A stretch of DNA of 64,000 nt from assembly GCA_038087875.1 (NCBI GenBank), contig CM075996.1:3226001-3290000 (forward strand). Direction: 5' to 3'. A model generated the notes under the pieces. That model did not search any database. It was not told the DNA's origin and worked only from the letters and a program-made list of their open reading frames with translations. The first letter of the stretch is position 1. Every line of letters begins with the position of its first letter. Source of the DNA: Malacoraja senta. Lineage: Eukaryota. Of this stretch, positions 12,988-54,238 are shown one piece after another. Position numbers and translations under genes: made by a program.

Positions 12988-13639
12988 AACAGAAAATATA
13001 TGGTGTGATGTGATGATTATAGATTCTTATAGTACAAAAGCAGGCCCTTCAGCCCCTCGTGTCTGTGCTGGTTGAAATGACTATGCTTTGATTCAGAGTA
13101 CATTTATAAACCTTAATATTTGGAAATGGTTGATCAACAATTCTGAATAACTTCAGGAAATTTTCCTGCATAGTTGGAATAGAGACCCAGCGCTTGTGAA
13201 TAAACATCTCAGTAAAGGGAAACAGTCCCGGGCATGGAATATGTAGGACACCATGTGAAACATAAACCCCGTTTTCCTCTCTGCTGTGTCCAAGTTAAGC
13301 TCTGCTGTTTCTCTTTTCTGAGTTTGCGAGATGAAGTAAGCTCCCTCAACCCCCTGCCTCCAAACATCACGCCGGTCATTGTACCTTGTACCCGGCCTGA
13401 TGTTTGGAGGCTGGGCCTGAGGGAGCTTACCTCATCTGGCAGCTTGTGTTGTATACCCACCATCCTCTGAGTAAAATAAAGTTCCACCGGTTGAACATTT
13501 GGAACAGCGCTGCTAAATGGGATTAGTACAGAGAGGGCGTTCTGGGCTCTGGAATATAGTTGTTTGGGGGGGTGGGGGGGGTCTGTTTCCTGCTGGGTGA
13601 CTGGTTCCGCCTCGACGCTGTGAAGGCAGAGACGGAGCT

Positions 13640-14219
13640 ATGGCGTGGGTGCGCAGTGTGGTGTCTGCAGCCTGGCTGGCCGAGGCTATCCGCACGGCCA
13701 AGGCAGGGACACTGCGGGTGCTGGACTGCTCCTGGTACCTGCCGGCGGTACCGCGCAACGCAAGAAAGGAGTTCGAGGAGCGGCACATCCCGGGAGCCGC
13801 CTACTTCAACATGGACGAGTGCAGCGACATCTCCTCGTCCTACGAGCACATGATGCCCCCGGCCGAGCACTTCGGCCGGTACGTGGGATCTCTGGGCATC
13901 GCCAGCCGCACGCACGTCGTGGTCTACGACGCCAGCGACTGCGGGATGTTCAGCTCCCCGCGGGTGTGGTGGATGTTCCGGGTTTTCGGCCACAGCCGGG
14001 TGTCGGTGCTGGACGGAGGACTGAAACACTGGTGCCGCCAGGGTCTGCCGGTCTCAGCCGAGCCACAGCAGTCGTCCCCCGCAATCTTCGAGCCGCAGCC
14101 CCGCGACTGGGTCAAGAACTACGAGCAGATCCTGCACAACATTGACAGCAGGGAGTTCCAGTTAGTGGATGCCAGGTCCTCGGGCAGGTTCCAAGGCAGC
14201 GAACCCGAACCTCGACCAG
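13640..14219 (+). CDS. MPST: 3-mercaptopyruvate sulfurtransferase-like (tandem rhodanese), coding exon 1
   Basis: Strong Kozak GCTATGG with an in-frame stop upstream. Motifs LDCSWYLP, HIPGA, YEHMMP, RVWWMFRVFGH, VLDGG, DARSSGRFQGSEPEPR. Phase-1 donor CCAG|GT at 14219/14220. Confidence 0.93.
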
Positions 14220-15186
14220 GTTTCTCAACTCTTCCACGTCATTAGCTCCCTGCTGTGTTAACCTCTTGTGTTTTTAAACAACGATTTTTGTAGAACATAG
14301 CCAGGTTCAAAACCCAACAGGCCATTTGGGGAATTAATTTGGAATTTTGGGAAAAGATACAGAATCAACAGCCACAACAGGAAATCACTTGTCCATTTGC
14401 TGAAACCTAAAAGTAATCCCAGTTAGTTCCATACAATGCTTGCAGACTCTTTATCAAATCCCTCTGGTCATGTTGCCTCCAACAACCTCTTGGCCAGACA
14501 ACCACATTCAGCAGTGCAGAACAAACGTTTACTGCTTCGCCCTGGTCACCCACAGTGTGGACACAACGATCATCTCTACCCTGGGACACTGACGGTCACC
14601 TTTCTTTTGTCATCCAGGACTTCACTTCATACTCTACCTGGGTGTACATTTTATGCCAATACATTTCCTCTTATGATTCTATTTACCTGATCTGGCCACA
14701 GACCCTGCCTTCCCCATGTCCCTCTCTGTTTCTCAGATGACGATGATAATTATTTACATTTGCTTGATGCGATGGCACTTTCTTAATTTCTTAATTAAAA
14801 TTCCTGACATTGCAACTGGCATCATTGAATATAATTGGCCATGTCATCAGCTATTTTTATATCTGATAACTTTTCTCCTGGGGAATTTACATTCCATGTC
14901 TGCAGATTCCTATCCACTCAAATTCAGTACATTCACGCGGACACTTTCTTATGAAAATTCCAAGATTTTTTTCTCTTCTCTCAACTATCTCAGCCACTCG
15001 CATAGTTAACATTCTAGTTATAGCCAAAACAATGCTTTATTTCAGTTTGCTTGTTTTTCCACCATACATTTTCGCATGGAGCCATACAGCATGAAATCGA
15101 GTCCTTCAGCCCAACTCGTCCAAACCCACCACATGAGTCCCGTTATAAAGCTCAGGATTTTGTTTCAAACACAAAGTGCTGAAGTC

Positions 15187-18400: not shown

Positions 18401-19431
18401 GACTGTTTTTATAGCCACAACAGAAACATTGGTGAGGGAGGGGCAGCCCAATGTTCCAGGGTACTGATGCCACAGGCATGATGGAGTTAGAGCTAAGAGG
18501 AGAAGTGGGGATTTTTGATTAGGGAGACATCACAGCAGAACTTAGAGAGGATGTTTTGGGGGGAATCGTCAGTGAGGCTACATGGTTGCAATTTAGAAAT
18601 AAGAAGGGGGTGATAGCTTATGTGGCCAATTTTATAGATGTTACAGAGATAGGCGGAGGGACAGGTAGTGTTGATGAAGCAGGGTGTCTGTACAAGGACT
18701 TGAACAGGTTGGCAGTTCATAAATTATAGGAGCTGAATTCTCTCAGATGCGAGCTGATCTGCTGAGTATTCTCTACAGCTTCTGTTTTTATTCCGGACTT
18801 TCATCACCTTCGGTATTTTGCTTTTGAAGTAAAAGGGAGATCTTGGGATGTGTGAATAGCTCAGAAATACAGCATGGGAAAAGGCCCCTCGGCTTACCGG
18901 ATCCATGCTGACTTTCAATCGCCCATTCACACTGGTTCTAAGTTATCCCACTTTCTTATCCGCTCCCATCACACTAGGGGTAATTTTTCAAACGTCAATT
19001 AAACTACAAACCTGCACATCTTTGGGATGTGGAGGAATCCGGAGCACCCGGAGGAAATCACATGTGGGAGAAAATGCAAACTCCACACAGGCTGCACCTG
19101 AGGTCAGGATTCAACCCGGATCCCTGACGCTGTGAGGCAGCAGCTCAACCACCTGTGCTACCCAAATAGAATTTACAGAATCATATTTGAAAACTGTGAC
19201 ATTGAGGATTAAAGGCTAAAATTAACATTAAAAGTTAATTTAGCCTAAGCTTAAGTATAACAGGGTGAGGTCTTGGAAAGATTAGAACAAGTAATTAATT
19301 ACCCTCTTTCTGCATCCAATCTTCTGCTGCTGAACCATCCAGTATTTGCAATGTTTTATTTAATATTTATAACATGCAGAGTATTTTGCTTTGAAAAAGC
19401 TCTCACATTTTTTCCTGCCGTACTGCTCCAG

Positions 19432-19733
19432 GTTACGATTCCGGTCACATCCCCGGCAGCATCAATATCCCCTTCAACAATCTCTTGGAATCGGAGACCC
19501 TAAAAATCAAGAGCGAGAAAGAGCTGAATAGCATCTTCACAGAACATGATGTTGACCTGTCTAAACCACTGGTGGGGACGTGCGGCACTGGGGTCACTGC
19601 CTGCCACATTGCTCTCGCTGCCCACCTCTGCGGGAAAGAGGATGTGATGATCTACGATGGCGCCTGGGTGGAATGGTTCACAAGAGCTGACCCAAGTTAT
19701 ATCATCTCAGTGAAAAATGAGAAGACTGAATAG
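19432..19733 (+). CDS. MPST: 3-mercaptopyruvate sulfurtransferase-like, coding exon 2
   Basis: Acceptor TTTTTCCTGCCGTACTGCTCCAG|GT, phase-matched. Encodes GYDSGHIPGSINIPF...TCGTGVTACHIALAA...YDGAWVEW...*. Spliced CDS is 882 nt (293 aa). The active-site loop is MPST-type (CG[S/T]GVT), not TST-type (CRKGVT). Confidence 0.92.
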
Positions 19734-34948: not shown

Positions 34949-35772
34949 TTACACGCTTTTTGCACTTTTACCTTTCCGGACCTCTTCTATCAAGCCATTT
35001 AAATATTGGATCTCTTTAGTCAATGAATCGGCTTTTTCTTGCAAGGTCTTATTTTTTTTCTCCAATAAACTACACTCTGAGGAAATAGCACCTTGTTCGT
35101 CCCTCTTCTTCTGTCTATATCGTGTTGCTGCACTCTTGTTCTGCTCCATCTTCTTCAATTTTTTTTCGACGCTCTTCGGCTCCGAACAATTGCTTTTTAC
35201 TTTTGGTGAATTTGCTACAGTTTTCGCACCAGGACGATCATATGGTTTCGACCTTGCAGGGCTATAGTCATTGAGTATGGACTTAGCTTCAGGTGATCTC
35301 TCTGACACACTTCTATCTAAAGATTCAACAGGGGAATGAGGAGAGCTGGAACCAACCCCACTATCAGAATCTAATGTTGGCCCTTCATCTATTTCTGTGC
35401 AGGAATCCTGCAGAATGGTTGATTGAAGCAAAAATAAGTCTGGCTTTTCCTCAAAATCTGAAATAACAATCTTTTCTTCCTCTAAGTGGAATGAGTCATC
35501 AGAGAAGAATATGCAATCTGGAACAACCGCAGGGGCCAGCTTATCTACCCCTCCAGGTGAATTTGGGACAGACTCAAGATCAAGACTTAGGTCAAGATCA
35601 GCTACCTGTTTAGTTGGCAACGGATCAAAAGGCAGCTCTCCCAGAAGTCCACAAGAACTGCCCAAGACAGCCAGCAGATCTTCTGAAGAGGTGCTGCCAT
35701 TTTCATCTTCGTTCAGTGTGTCAAAGAGATTCACCTTCTGTGCCATCCAGTCCAAGCCGGTGAATGCATCCT
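34949..35772 (-). CDS. ATF4: Activating transcription factor 4, last coding exon
   Basis: Acceptor CCCTTTTTCTTCCAG|AG. Contains EDAFTGLDWM, the degron-like DSGVGSS, RSKPYDRP and the bZIP KKLKKMEQNKSAATRYRQKKR...KEIQYL..LIEEV. Confidence 0.96.
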
Positions 35773-36045
35773 CTGGAAGAAAAAGGGGGAAAATTGCCCC
35801 GTCAAATGGATGAAATAGCTTCAAATACACTACATTGTCAGTCAATTGGGTTCAGCTCAAGTATCTAGAATTATCATTTTTGCATGTAAATGCCTGATAC
35901 TTGGTACCATACAATAGCTCCACATTAACAATTCCCAGTTTTAGTGTTAAATACATTACTAGTTGATACAATTCAATACTGCTGATCAACGGTTGGCCTG
36001 TGAGCCTTCAGCAAATTTCAATCAATGCTACATTTGTTAACTTAC

Positions 36046-38431: not shown

Positions 38432-40702
38432 TTCAAGATTCAAGAGAGTTTATTGTCATGTGTCCCAGATAGGACAATTAAATTCTTGCTTTGCTTCAGC
38501 ACAACTGAATATAGTAGGCATAAATAAATACAGAACACAACTGATCAGTGTGACCATATACCAATGAATATATATATATACACACATAAATAAACAGATA
38601 AAGTGCAATGGGCTATTAATGATCAGAGTTTTGTTTGAGTTGAGTTTAATAGCCTGATGGCTGTGGGGAAGCAGCTATTCCTGAACCTGGATGTTGCAGA
38701 TTTCAGGCTCCTGTACCTTCTACCTGAAGGTAGCGGGGAGATGAGAGTGGCCAGGATGGTGTGGGTCCTTGATGATGCTGGTAGCCTTTTTGAGGCAGCG
38801 ACTGCGAAAGATCCCCTCGATGGTAGGGAGGTCAGAGCCGATGATGAACTGGGCAGTACTTACAACTTTTTGCAGTCTTTTTCGCTCCTGGGCACTCAGG
38901 TTGCCGAACCAAGCCACGATGCAACCGGTCAGCATGCTCTCTACTGTGCACCTGTAGAAGTTCGAGAGAGTACTCCTTGACATACCGACACTCCGTAATC
39001 TTCTCAGGAAGTAGAGGCGCTGATATGCTTTCTTTATAATTGCATCCGTGATCTCGGACCAGGAGAGATCGTCAGAGATATGCACGCCCAGGAATTTGAA
39101 GCTCTTGACCCTCTCCACCATCGACCCGTTGATATAAACGGGACTATGGGTCCCCATCCTACCCCTTCCAAAGTGCACAACCAGTTCCTTAGTTTTGCTA
39201 ATTTTGAGAGCCAGGTTATTTTTCTGGCACCATTTGGTCAAACGGTCGATCTCACTTCTATACTCTGACTCGTCTCCATCAGGAATACGTCCCACAACAG
39301 TGGTGTCGTCAGCGAACTTGATGATGGAGTTCGCACTATGTCCGGCTACGCAGTCATGAGTATAGAGTGAGTACAGCAGGGGGCTGAGCACGCAGCCTTG
39401 AGGTGCTCCCGTGCTGATTGTTATCGAGGCTGACACATTTCCACCAATACGGACAGACTGTGGTCTGTGAATGAGGAAGTCGAGGATCCAATTGCAGAGG
39501 GATGCGCAGAGACCCAGTTCTGAAAGTTTGGTAACCAGCTTGGAGGGGATGATTGTGTTAAATGCCGAGCTGTAGTCAATGAATAACAGCCTGACATATG
39601 AGTTTTTGTTGTCCAAGTGGTCCAGAGCGGAGTGGAGAGGCAGCGAGATCGCATCCACCGTTGGTTGACCTGTTGTGGCGGTATGCGAACTGCAGTGGGT
39701 CCAGGTCTTTGTCGAGGTAGAAGTTGATTTGCGCCATGATCAACCTCTCAGAGCACTTCATCACCACGACGTTAGTGCCACTGGTCGATAGTCATTGAGG
39801 CACGTCACCTTGCTCTTCTTGGGCACCGGTATAATTGATGCCCTTTTAAAGCAGGTGGGAACCTCAGACCTCAGAAGTGAGAGGTTGAAAATGTCCGTAA
39901 AAACTCCAGCCAGTTGGTCTGCACAGGTTTTTAGAACACGACCGGGTATGCCATCAGGTCCAGGCGTATTTCCGAGGTTTCACCCCTCTGAAGGATTTCC
40001 TGATGTCGACTTTAGTGACCGTGACCGAAATACCATCACAGCGAATGCACAGAAGGCTCGAGAAGGCACATCAGTGTTCTCCCTATCAAAGCGTGCGTAA
40101 AACGCATTGAGCTCGTCAGGGAGTGAAGTTTCACTGACGTGTGCTGCCTCCTGATTTCGCCTTGAAGGAGGTGATGGCATTCAAGCCCCACCACAGCTGC
40201 CGAACATCCGTCTCATCCTCCAGCTTGGAGCAGAAGTCCCTTTTGGCCTTTTTGATGGCCTTACTAAGGTCGTATCTGGTCTTCATGTAGTCCTCGGTAC
40301 CTTCAGACATGGATGCCCGGTGTCTGGACTTCAGAAGAGTGCGGATCTCATATTTCATCCAAGGCTTCTGATTGGGAAACACTTGGAAGGTTTTTGTTGG
40401 GATGCAGTCCTCCACACATTTCTTTATGAAGTCTAACGCCTGAACATTGCCCAGTCTACAGACTCCAAACAGTCCTGGAGTAGTTCCTCTGCCCCCCCGA
40501 CCAGCTCTGAACAGTCCTCACCTCTGGGGGTGCGCTCTTTAATTGCTGCCTGTAGGCAGGAAGAAGCAGCACCGCGGAATGGTCAGATTTACCGAAGTGA
40601 GGAGCGAGGGATAGAGCGATAGGCATCCTTGATGGTGATGTAGCAGTGGTCAAGGGTGGTTGGTCATCTGGTGCAGCAGGAGACATGTTGGTGGAAGTTA
40701 GC
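38432..40702 (-). mobile_element. Rex1/Babar-type LINE, 5'-truncated and frameshifted
   Basis: Endonuclease tail (HFGKSDHSAVLLLPAYRQ) and RT motifs ([41 protein letters not shown]), then a 3' UTR with AATAAA and a (TCTTGA)n tail. Confidence 0.92.
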
Positions 40703-46000: not shown

Positions 46001-46592
46001 TCTTCATCCATTTTCTCCAGACATGCTGCCTGACCCACTGAGTTACTCCAGCATTTAGCGTGTAGCATTCAGGCAAATAAATAGTTTGGTTTGGATTGAG
46101 GTGTCTTGTTGTACAGAAAGAAATGGCTTTTCATAAACTCAGCATTGTTTTAAATACTCGGTAGCAAACAAATCACTTTTGCACTAACTGTTGTAATGTA
46201 GGGAAATAAGATGCAACAAGTCTCATATGTGCAAACATGTTAATAGCTAAATTATTTTGTTAGCTATAAAGTCTGAAGAAGCGTCCCGACCTGAAACGAG
46301 ACCTATCCATTTTCTCCAGAGTTGCTGCCTGACCAGCTGAGTTATTCCAGCAATTTGTATTTATCTTTGGTATAAACCAGCATTTGCACTTCCTTGTTAT
46401 TACAATTTGGTTAAGGACAGTGCTTTCTTTGTGACTATGCGCCAGTATGGCATACTGACACCTCTAAAAAGTTAAATGTTACTCTGTCTTTTGGTCACAA
46501 GACGCATATTTTTATTAATCATGCATACCAGTAGCTTTTCCTACATACGAACAAGCACTGGTTAAGGATAAGTCTTATCAGGGTCACCAGTG

Positions 46593-46721
46593 GGGTGGGA
46601 GATTGCAACCTTCACCTGTTTCGACGAATGCAATCAACCCGGCGTACACAATCAAATAAGATCAAATAGAACAAGTTGTCCTACAACTTTAGGCTGTGCA
46701 CGCCATACGCAAGAAGAAGAA
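46593..46721 (+). mobile_element. Short retroposon with an HDV-like ribozyme head (copy 1, ~10-nt internal deletion)
   Basis: Near-identical to 52538-52680. (GAA)n tail; degenerate 11-bp TSD GGTCACCAGTG / GGTTACCAATG. Confidence 0.8.
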
Positions 46722-48149
46722 GGTTACCAATGATCTTTACATCTCCTGAGAGACCATAAACATTGAAGAAATAAGAGTAGGAGTAGTCTATTCGGCCTTG
46801 AGCCATTTAATAAGATCATGCCTGATCTTCTGCCTCAGCAACATTTTCCTTTCCATCTCCATATTAAAAATCTATTGATATCAGGTTTGAATTGAATCAA
46901 TGGCTGAGCTTCTACAACTCTCTTGGATGGAGAATTCAAAGAATCTTCACCTTCTGAATGAAAATAATAAAAGACAAATAAAAAACATTCTAATAAAAAT
47001 AAAAGATTTTTATTAATATGTTTTTTATTCGTCTTTTGTTATTTTTTATTTTAATCTTAAAATGAACGTATTTTAAATACCAAAGAGTAAAAGAAGATTC
47101 AACGAAATAATCCTCCCTGACTGACGGCCACAATTAAAACATTAGTAAGTCATGAGGGCTATTTTAACACTTGTTAACACTCATGATTTAGTTCTAATGC
47201 GACTCTAGACTCTAGAAAGCAGTCCCAACAAAGTCATTAAAAAGTTAGTTAACTTTAGAATTAACACATTTTTTCATTTTCTTGAAGTTAGTACATAGTA
47301 GGTAGATTTTTACAAATTTATGTACATTTTGAAGTGTATCTAATTGAAGTTTCTTCTATGCGGCCTTATTAGATTACAGCTAACTTAATGCGGCATTCCA
47401 ACATGAAAAGGTTCCCCACCCCAGGTCTAGAATCTCTTAAGAACAATTCTAGTTCCAATGTCGTGGGCTGGCTGAATTAACATCCGTGAATACTTGAGGA
47501 AGTGCAGTCAGTGACGTCTATGTTTCCCTGGAAACTAATCTCTCCACATCATTATGTTAAAAGTTTGAAGTGTTAGGGCTGCTGTTGCAACCCACTGTCT
47601 TAACAAAGTTAAAGATAAGACTCTCCCATACTAAAATGAACAGCTTCACATTTTAAAATAAATTACATATAGCTTGGTGTCTGTTCTCTGTCAATTGAAT
47701 AGGGCAGCACGGTGGCAGAGCGGTAGAGTTGCTGCCTTACAGCGCCAGACACCCAGGTTTAATCCTGACTACGGGTGGTGTCTATACGGTGTTTGTACGT
47801 TCTTCCTGGGTTTTCCCCGGGTGCTTCGGTTTCCTCCCACACTCCAAAGACGACCGGTTCTTAGGTTAATTTTTGTGGGTAAAATCTGTAAATTGTCCCT
47901 AGTGTGTAGGATAGTGCTGGTGTGCAGGAATGGCTAGTCGGTGTGGAATTGGTGGGCTGAAGGGCCTGTTTCCACACTGCATCTCTAAAACTAAGAACTA
48001 AAAACTATGAAGGTTTAGGATTATTTTTCCTCATGAAAGATGTTACAGAAATAGATATTATTATTTTTCAAAAACATGCCTGCCTTTCTGGGTGATAATA
48101 CGATTGGAATAACATAGGAAGTTATTTTAAGTTCATCTATTAAACCATG

Positions 48150-51970: not shown

Positions 51971-52537
51971 GGACATGGGGGTCAAACAGGAGATAGGGTT
52001 AAAGAGGCAGGCTGGGATTCTGCCTTGTGGTCCATGGGTGAGTATCAGCTAGATTAAATTTCTACCATTAAAAAAAGGCAGGGAGCAGGTATCAGGATTG
52101 TTACTACCAGTTACCTGCAGATTAGCGATAAAATAATTTATGCCATACATCACTCGGAAAATGTGCTCAATGTTTGTATCAATCAAGGTAAATTCAGTGA
52201 ATTATTAGCAAATAGAATTAAAATCCCTCACAACTCTGGTTTCCTCTCTGCAAGCTCCTTCCTCCGTTCTTCACCCTTAGTTTCCCCACCCACGCCAATT
52301 TGACTTGTTATTTCTTGGAATTTCTTGCTGCTGGAAAGTCCCGAGCTGTAGACACAGTGCAACTGGATGCAGCCACAGGGAGCAAAGCTAATTACCCTCC
52401 CCAGTTGATGTTGCAGAGGGAGATTAAAGACTGGGCTCCCTCAGTGGGGAATAAATTATCTGAAGGAGGGTCTCAACCCAAAATGTCACCCATTCCTTCT
52501 ATCTAGAGATGCTTCCTGTCCCACTGAGTTACTCCAG

Positions 52538-52680
52538 GGGATGGGAGATTGCAACCTTCACGTGGTCCTGCCTGTTTCGACGAATGCAATCAACCCGGCG
52601 TGCACAACCAAATAAGATCAAATAGAACAAGTTGTCCGACAACTTTAGGCTGTGCACGCCACACGCATGAAGAAGAAGAA
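52538..52680 (+). mobile_element. Short retroposon with an HDV-like ribozyme head (copy 2), inserted into a PLE-derived repeat
   Basis: Perfect 12-bp TSD GAGTTACTCCAG (52526-52537 / 52681-52692); (GAA)n tail; internal hairpins. Confidence 0.88.
52539..52591 (+). ncRNA. Minimal HDV/CPEB3-like self-cleaving ribozyme (predicted)
   Basis: P1 GGATGGG/CCTGCCT, J1/2 A, P2 GATTGCA/TGCAATC, P3 ACC/GGT, L3 TTCACGT, then GT, a vestigial P4 TTCGA and J4/2 CGAA. Folded by eye. Confidence 0.75.
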
Positions 52681-53264
52681 GAGTTACTCCAGCATTTGGT
52701 GTCTGCCTTCGGTGTAAACCAGCATCTGCAGTTCCCTCCTACAAACAGTATCTTCAGTTTTCTTTTGGTGCTAGTAAGAATTTCATTGTTCCATCGTCAG
52801 TACATATGACAGTTAAACACTCTTCATTATCTTTAGGATTCGCAGTTTAAAGTTTGTGGAGTTAGGAAGCAAGTTAGGAATACACGCACTAGAGCACACA
52901 CCCTGAGCAGCATCAGTGTTGAGGGTCATGTTGGACAAAATGTCATGACTAATTTTAACAGGCTGAGGTCTGTAGGTCCAGAAGCCAGTTTCAGATGGAG
53001 CCCCAATGCCTCGGTCCAGAAGTTTAGAGATGAGTTCATTTGGTGTCATGGTATTGAAGGCTAATCTGTGGTCAATGAATAGCACACCCTGACATAGGTG
53101 TTCTTACTGTCAAGATGATCCAGATCTGAATGTGGTGCAAATTCTGCTTTTCCCCCCAAACTGATTAAACTTGTTAATTTGCAGAAATGTTATGCTCTTG
53201 CAGCAATATTATCTCCCCCCCCCCCCCCCCATTCTTCCTTTGTAGCTTTTACTTTTCATTCCAA

Positions 53265-54238
53265 TTTCATCCGCACCTGTCCTGCACTATCACCCTGAGC
53301 ACCGGCACACCACAGGGCTGTGTACTAAGCCCCATGCTCTACTCCCTCTTCACTCACGACTGTGTCCCTGCATTCGACACCAACACCATCGTGAAGTTTG
53401 CAGATGACACAACAGTGATTGGGCTGATCACCAACGGTGATGAAACAAAATACAGAGCGGAGGTGCAGAACCTGGCGGACTGGTGCGCTCATAACAACTT
53501 GTCACTAAACACCTCCAAGACCAAGGAGCTGATTATTGACTTCAGGAGATCCCATAATGGAGAATACGCCCCAATCTCCATTTACGGGGAAAGTGTGGAG
53601 AGAGTGTCCAGCTTTAAGTTTCTGGGCACTCACATTTCAGAGGACCTCACATGGTCCACCAACACCGCTGCGCTGGTCAAGAAGGCACAGCAACGACTGT
53701 TCTTCCTGAGGACATTAAAAAAGACTGGTCTGCCCCAACAGCTGCTGACAACGTTCTACCGCTGCACCACAGAGAGCATATTAACGTATGGCATCTCTGT
53801 GTGGTATCTCAGCTGCACGGAGGCGGAGAGGAGAGCTCTTCAGCGCGTCGTCCACAGAGCGCAGAGGATCATTGGGACAGAGCTGCCAGCCTTGGAGGGC
53901 ATCTACCACACACGGTGCCTCAGGAAGGCCGTCAGCATCCATAAGGACTCATCACACCCTTGTAACGGACTGTTTGAACTACTTCCCTCCGGCAGACGCT
54001 ACAAGGCCTTCTACGCCCGAACCTCCAGACTCAGAAACAGCTTTATTCCAAGAGCTATAGAGGCTCTGAACCGGCCCTGCTGAGTGCCCCCCCACCCACC
54101 CCCCTGGACAGTCTCCCTCGGATGGTCACGTCACTCAGCTTGCTTGCTTATTTATTTATTTTACTTGTACATCGGTGGAGCTGCTTACTAAATCTCGTTG
54201 CACTGACGTGCAATGACAATAAAAGATATTATTATTAT
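53265..54238 (+). mobile_element. Rex1/Babar-type LINE, 5'-truncated, with an uninterrupted RT C-terminal frame
   Basis: [50 protein letters not shown], stop at 54083, then AATAAA and an (ATT)n tail. Confidence 0.92.

Follow-up and report, generated by a model that had tools for sequence, protein, structure and literature searches.

A short retroposon family of Malacoraja senta headed by a predicted P4-less HDV/CPEB3-type ribozyme and probably derived from a Vingi-type LINE

We describe here a short retroposon located in a window of 64,000 nucleotides from Malacoraja senta (positions 3,226,001 to 3,290,000 of contig CM075996.1, assembly GCA_038087875.1), the window being the whole stretch of DNA that was analysed. 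The account that we consider likely is that the element is a deletion derivative of a Vingi-type LINE, here called D, that it is headed by a P4-less ribozyme predicted to cleave its own transcript, and that it would be inserted by target-primed reverse transcription (TPRT) through the APE-RT protein of D or of a sister family. The insert is 143 bp long, with a perfect 12-bp target-site duplication (TSD) and a (GAA)4 tail, all readable directly in the DNA as the preliminary description of this sequence had reported. The description also held that there is no ORF, which is borne out, and the TSD, the microsatellite tail and the dispersed copies are likewise marks of TPRT. The features of the insert, together with a second copy of the family in the window, are as follows.

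52526..52537, + strand: left target-site duplication, 12 bp
52538..52591, + strand: P4-less HDV/CPEB3-type ribozyme fold, 54 nt, with predicted cleavage 5' of G52538 (descriptor, independent model, covariation)
52538..52544, + strand: P1 5' strand in the family register, with a private change at 52541
52547..52553, + strand: P2 5' strand, pairing 7/7 with 52585-52591
52554..52566, + strand: P3 (3 bp) and 7-nt L3 (descriptor, covariation)
52567..52573, + strand: P1 3' strand, with private changes at 52569 and 52570
52574..52580, + strand: P1.1 G, then U, then the 5-nt stub that replaces P4 (P1.1 C-G in 17/17 aligned heads)
52581..52584, + strand: J4/2 with candidate catalytic C52581
52585..52591, + strand: P2 3' strand (descriptor, covariation)
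52592..52617, + strand: remainder of the presumed LINE 5' UTR, with an ATG at its end in subfamily 2 (D origin suggested by locus L257)
52618..52636, + strand: variable linker (subfamily majorities differ at 19 positions in nt 73-101)
52637..52668, + strand: 3' end common to LINE D, comprising last codons, stop at 52646-48 and 3' UTR (sequence match)
52669..52680, + strand: (GAA)4 tail, of the same type as on LINEs A, C and D
52681..52692, + strand: right target-site duplication, 12 bp
46592..46722, + strand: second family copy, lacking through a 10-nt deletion the 3' strand of P3 and most of that of P1

The insertion went into an older repeat of high copy number (about 52459-52743), and the insert is absent from the other copies of this repeat. 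We also note a 10-bp inverted repeat (52597-52606 and 52651-52660) that brings the 5' part into pairing with the 3' part derived from the LINE; both arms include a palindromic 6-mer. Elsewhere in the window, the frames at 13601-14245 (+), 19395-19733 (+), 34949-35851 (-), 38720-39739 (-) and 53178-54083 (+) comprise two frames with a rhodanese domain, one bZIP frame and two pieces of RT from a LINE of another type, in a domain scan that covered 40 of the 52 frames.

The element belongs to a large and homogeneous family. Of 1,141 candidates from a DNA search of the 1.94-Gb genome, 40 were scored, and all of these are 94-100% identical to it. Exact patterns match 3,557 head cores and 3,731 tail cores, with no matches to the reversed controls, and the overlap of the two lists at 19 of the first 40 tail matches suggests a family size of about 7,500 copies. 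To avoid a 5' bias, the 5' ends were read in a sample picked by its 3' end, the first 40 tail matches, among which two pairs are duplicates and one (L196) is the 3' end of another LINE, D. The preliminary description had looked to clustering of 5' ends at G1 as support and to random 5' ends as the contrary case; 31 of the 40 sampled copies begin exactly at G1 (52538) and 35 lie within 2 nt of it, so that random ends are not what this 3'-anchored sample contains. Four of the ends off G1 are at nt 2-3, and the others are at nt 6, 20, 89, 102 and 102. TSDs accompany 31 of the 40 copies, nearly all of 9-13 bp, the median distance to the majority sequence is 4.9%, and the strict fold is intact in 17 copies, three more with extra J1/2 bases being left unscored. 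Between the majorities of the two subfamilies there are two differences in the 54-nt head, both compatible with the fold, as against 19 in the linker (nt 73-101). The base just upstream of G1 is T in 34 of 53 family copies, compared with 28% in flanks, and is mostly the last base of the TSD and sometimes an extra base. Exact 5' ends are not specific to cleavage, because any 140-nt RNA with a fixed start would give them. The family is also present in contigs of four public sequencing runs under four organism codes; run contigs that end at 52538 were considered as evidence of cleavage and rejected, such ends being expected at any repeat boundary.

Several lines of evidence support an HDV-type fold at the head. 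The family presents the nested double pseudoknot with P1, P2, P3 and P1.1 in the right order, and has the conserved core of the HDV class, namely the G1 wobble, the U and C positions of L3, the P1.1 G, and the candidate catalytic C and the A of J4/2. A descriptor of the fold matches once in the real window and not at all in 150 simulated 128-kb sequences, and it places P2, P3, L3, the GT, the 5-nt stub, J4/2 and C52581 where the preliminary description had located them. In a MAFFT alignment of 17 related heads, four of them from the element's own family, pairing is present in 87% of cells and 13 of the 19 pairs are changed on both sides, including all seven of P2. The covariation score of 0.59, as compared with 0.20 for shuffled alignments, was reached in none of 500 shuffles, which supports the covariation in P1, P2 and P3 that had been suggested as a check, although it is partly built in because the rows were picked by the descriptor or the Rfam model, which favours pairing. 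For a model made from 10 heads excluding the element's family, two of its rows belonging to a sister P4-less family, the element is the top-ranking match in the window (32.2 bits, E=9.8e-6). Of 3,754 copies, 3,557 (95%) retain the candidate catalytic C and the other 197 have another base, mostly by CpG decay among the exceptions listed; the base that follows this C varies (G 52, T 34, A 12 and C 2 among the first 100 matches listed). The retention of this C, together with head variation that is compatible with the structure, points to selection for the ribozyme fold in the source copies. P4 is absent, with a 5-nt stub in its place in the family; a genome search for a long-P4 form of the head returned three matches, none with a real P4, and a long-P4 parent with the same head was rejected.

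The copy in the window is not a typical representative, and this bears on the register of P1. The preliminary description placed the nested pseudoknot at 52539-52591 with a single A as J1/2; the order of its elements holds, but the P1 of the family consists of the first seven nucleotides, pairs 7/7, starts one base further upstream (G1 = 52538), and is followed by a J1/2 of two bases. The register from 52539 was rejected since it fits only the decayed window copy, where it looks better because of three private changes (52541, 52569 and 52570), which are among six differences from the family majority, three of them within P1. The decay of P1 had been suspected, and the family consensus does restore the pairing, although the ancestral P1 differs from the GGGCGGG/CCCGCCU that had been guessed. 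P1 and P3 are the predicted fold of a typical copy at -12.4 kcal/mol; in the window copy, which has two P1 mismatches in the family register, they amount to -3.8 kcal/mol in that register and -2.7 in the 52539 register, and another fold wins. Judged by these predicted energies, the window copy is probably a daughter copy that has decayed, its P1 being weak and its ribozyme slow or inactive.

Among the known systems closest to the head is the mammalian CPEB3 ribozyme (RF00622), a single-copy, intronic ribozyme that has been linked to memory. The element resembles it in the G1-U wobble, the single-pair P1.1 followed by U, J4/2 and L3, which is the same as the Rfam CPEB3 consensus loop, as had been noticed from the sequence, but the two differ in the P1, P2 and P3 sequences and in the lack of P4. 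A check with the Rfam CPEB3 model had been proposed, and the element itself gains no match from it: the Rfam scan of the window copy, L008 and L094 gave no family matches, RF00622 included (gathering cut-off of 35 bits). The model does find other loci in this genome, with at least 39 matches over the cut-off among the 60 listed and nothing over the cut-off in 14 control genomes. The best of these are the heads of a 3.14-kb LINE with a single ORF encoding APE and RT (LINE A), and the heads of Vingi-type LINEs score 55-64 bits. HDV-type heads are also present on other LINE families in the genome (L077, L240, L251 and L252), such that at least five families start with one, and a strict descriptor finds them in two of the 17 metagenome relatives for which the match extended into the N-terminal region. 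The P3 pairs of the element recur in the heads of L077, L252 and L253, and the other LINE heads have no match to the element's head beyond the core.

Some of these heads have features of their own. The P1.1 pair is U-A instead of C-G in a LINE head at L251:264-340 and in L244, and P1.1 contains an additional C-G pair in the heads of L077, L118 and L130; these changes are compensatory. A second short family of about 170 nt (L051, L053 and L057-L060) likewise has a head without P4, together with an AAG tail and the remnant of a Vingi-like C-terminus. It scores above the Rfam CPEB3 cut-off, and in most of its copies P1 seems to be missing its first G. Two copies of LINE A (G000:C4:35486639-35489428 and C8:934641-937427) have open frames of more than 1,000 aa with no stops, because of which LINE A may still be active, and the 5' ends of these two copies (L073 and L041) contain tandem repeats of part of the ribozyme.

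The partner of the element is LINE D. Over its last ~35 nt the element agrees with the final codons, the stop and the 3' UTR of D, and the tail is shared as well. The common stretch is covered, at 94-100% identity, in 39 of the 40 D copies listed. The proposal that the element borrows a LINE through its 3' tail is borne out to the extent that a LINE with the same 3' end has been found, but the partner appears to be of Vingi type rather than R2 or RTE. The RT of D is 47% identical to L122, a 1,035-aa APE and RT protein without an RNase H hit, and the two form a separate branch in a quick tree, in which the position of L118 is disregarded because of a frameshift in its translated protein; an Anolis RT protein, presumably that of Vingi-1, is 40% identical to D and 50% identical to LINE A. 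As given in PMC13708176, a Vingi has a single ORF with APE and RT, no RNase H and a length of about 3 kb, and this fits LINE A and L122, the closest full-length relative of D. We therefore class D provisionally as Vingi-type by that definition, on the basis of the RT and C-terminus by which it is known and of the comparison with L122 and the Anolis protein. Two protein searches yielded no full-length D, and a D head was found in 0 of 17 probes and 0 of four further stretches. LINEs A and C were rejected as the parent, having no more than the terminal ACG/TCG motif and the type of tail in common with the element. An earlier idea, that the 3' part of subfamily 2 is an ORF ending in W-x4-stop, gave scores of 0.9-7.3 compared with at least 13.8 for real C-termini and is replaced by the match to D, and a 3.1-kb spacing of matches on C20, considered as a LINE, is a tandem duplication. 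The 3' UTR of LINE C (L075-L089) has an 11-nt identity to window positions 52544-52554, the J1/2-P2 stretch, that is possibly due to chance.

The origin of the head is suggested by a single composite insertion, L257, in which head nt 5-79 in the subfamily-2 form are inverted and followed by an 18-nt direct head piece and then by 1.75 kb of D with its tail, the whole being flanked by one 10-bp TSD. LINE A serves as a control, with a head-to-head join to its own first ~100 nt in both L038 and L049, TSDs being present. Taken together, the composite and the same geometry in LINE A argue that the element is probably D with its ORF deleted, and the head that it carries would be D's own. The view of the element as a non-autonomous retroposon is supported, but it is probably an internal-deletion derivative of D and no unrelated passenger. 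An inverted head abuts the 3' part of a LINE in 10 of the 30 CPEB3-model loci examined, and several such loci that had been taken for short families were rejected on this account. Inverted-head insertions include L038, L049 and L257, and also L035, L039, L042, L046, L048, L052, L054 and L056. The inverted piece is only 75-97 nt where measured, in a sample selected by ribozyme matches, and because it is so short, second-strand priming seems to occur just downstream of the ribozyme.

A different reading of L257 is that it is a chimera of two RNAs, the element itself having acquired its head from a different Vingi-type family, or from some unrelated RNA, through template switching to the D tail. 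This would accommodate the fact that no D head was seen directly in the probes and D stretches, the P3 pairs common to three other LINE heads, and the 11-nt match in LINE C. However, no other head matches beyond the core, LINE A makes the same inverted geometry with its own head, and the inverted piece in L257 stops at an ATG, the expected start of the LINE ORF, and we regard a composite origin as improbable.

For a deletion derivative of D, the following course of events can be proposed. An internal deletion would have retained the first ~80 nt and the last ~35 nt of D with the (AAG)n tail, and a source copy would be transcribed from upstream. The ribozyme would cut 5' of G1 to give an RNA of about 140 nt with a defined 5' end and the ribozyme still aboard, the APE-RT protein encoded by D or by a sister family would bind the 3' end of this RNA, and target-primed reverse transcription would insert a copy with a TSD of 9-15 bp. 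We infer the cleavage, the source of transcription and the acting protein from the chemistry of HDV ribozymes and from L1Tc and NARTc of Trypanosoma cruzi as described in PMC3383444.

That same system suggests that the inherited ribozyme fold could also, or mainly, be an internal Pol II promoter like Pr77, with no host read-through needed. According to PMC3383444, a single stretch of 77 nt in L1Tc and NARTc serves as the ribozyme and also as an internal Pol II promoter, and because this head doubles as a promoter, promoter independence is not a safe inference for the element. The precedent is in the sister Ingi clade (PMC3383444), a fixed transcription start would likewise give exact 5' ends, and a family of about 7,500 copies hints at strong source genes; the kept catalytic C and structure-compatible variation point instead to selection on the fold, and we think a promoter role unlikely, although it is compatible with cleavage and both could hold together. 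It is unlikely in the extreme that the element is a conventional Pol III SINE whose tRNA-like head has degenerated and whose HDV pattern is a relic or coincidence: nt 39-43 form a TTCGA core and nt 5-15 weakly resemble an A-box, but the best A-box has 3/11 mismatches and the B-like stretch two, they are only ~33 nt apart with no B-box in a tRNA-like arrangement, a tRNA search of the element is empty (consistent with the lack of A and B boxes previously reported), the stub bases differ in the sister P4-less family, and the fold is far beyond chance by the independent model and the simulations.

The preferred account, a ribozyme-headed deletion derivative of a Vingi-type LINE, has close parallels. 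NARTc, like the element, is short and non-autonomous and has a 5' head and the last ~30 nt in common with its LINE, L1Tc (PMC3383444). Its HDV-like ribozyme cuts just upstream of +1 (PMC3383444), whereas in the element cleavage is predicted only; the element also differs in residing in an animal genome, in its Vingi-type partner, in its length (143 nt versus 263 nt), in the lack of P4, and in having an (AAG)n rather than a poly(A) tail. Short ribozyme-headed LINE derivatives, such as NARTc and the SIDERs, are already known (PMC3383444, PMC6765202). Bipartite non-autonomous LINEs of the RTE, Ingi, Vingi and R2 clades have been described that, like the element, consist of LINE 5' and 3' ends with the ORF deleted and have no tRNA head, and the list of ribozyme-bearing clades in the same text does not name Vingi (Kojima 2018, PMC5786205). 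The minimal HDV-like and theta ribozymes (Kienbeck 2024, PMC10879173) are like the element in having no P4 and a size of about 54 nt, but about 99% of the minimal HDV-like ribozymes are reported there to be in phages, where they process tRNAs, whereas the element's fold heads an animal retroposon; the eukaryotes named for that screen are human, mouse and protists. CPEB3-related ribozymes are reported in lamprey, lancelet and sea urchin (PMC8256844), and these may be the same kind of head. Our literature search, which extended to papers but not to Repbase, Dfam or patents, found none that deals with the element's family or derives the CPEB3 ribozyme from Vingi elements. RIME and SIDER of the Ingi clade are said to be the same kind of short LINE-derived element as NARTc, and the R2 SIDEs are reportedly also short ribozyme-headed LINE derivatives. 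Relative to the literature searched, the amplification of an apparent P4-less ribozyme fold in an animal genome and the scores of the putative Vingi-type heads on the CPEB3 model appear to be new.

The Vingi-type heads raise the question of where the CPEB3 ribozyme came from. The head of a metagenome Vingi-type LINE (L118:2781-2853) scores 55.6 bits on the Rfam CPEB3 model and, between G1 and the P1.1 G, agrees with the consensus at 35 of 37 positions; in L042 and L046 the match to the consensus extends to P4. Because the HDV-type fold reportedly has no more than six invariant nucleotides (PMC8256844), common descent of the CPEB3 ribozyme and the Vingi-type heads appears likelier than convergence. 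A paper on ancestral reconstruction of the CPEB3 ribozyme (PMC8233481) does not, in the text available, contain the words 'origin' or 'transpos'. Tentatively, and with rather less confidence than we attach to the account of the element itself, we suggest that Vingi-type LINEs are headed by CPEB3-type ribozymes, that one lineage lost P4 and gave rise to a 140-nt, Pol III-free SINE-like family, and that the CPEB3 ribozyme is a domesticated head. This offers a testable origin for the CPEB3 ribozyme, in that the resemblance of the Vingi-type heads to it is far closer than the fold demands. There may also be practical consequences, since gene-writing tools based on Vingi-1 use the native 5' UTR (PMC13708176), which may self-cleave. 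For the biology of the family, the account would, if true, mean that a natural P4-less HDV-type ribozyme, of a kind known almost only from phages, is present at thousands of copies in an animal genome, and that some intact copies in sense orientation would be able to cut host transcripts.
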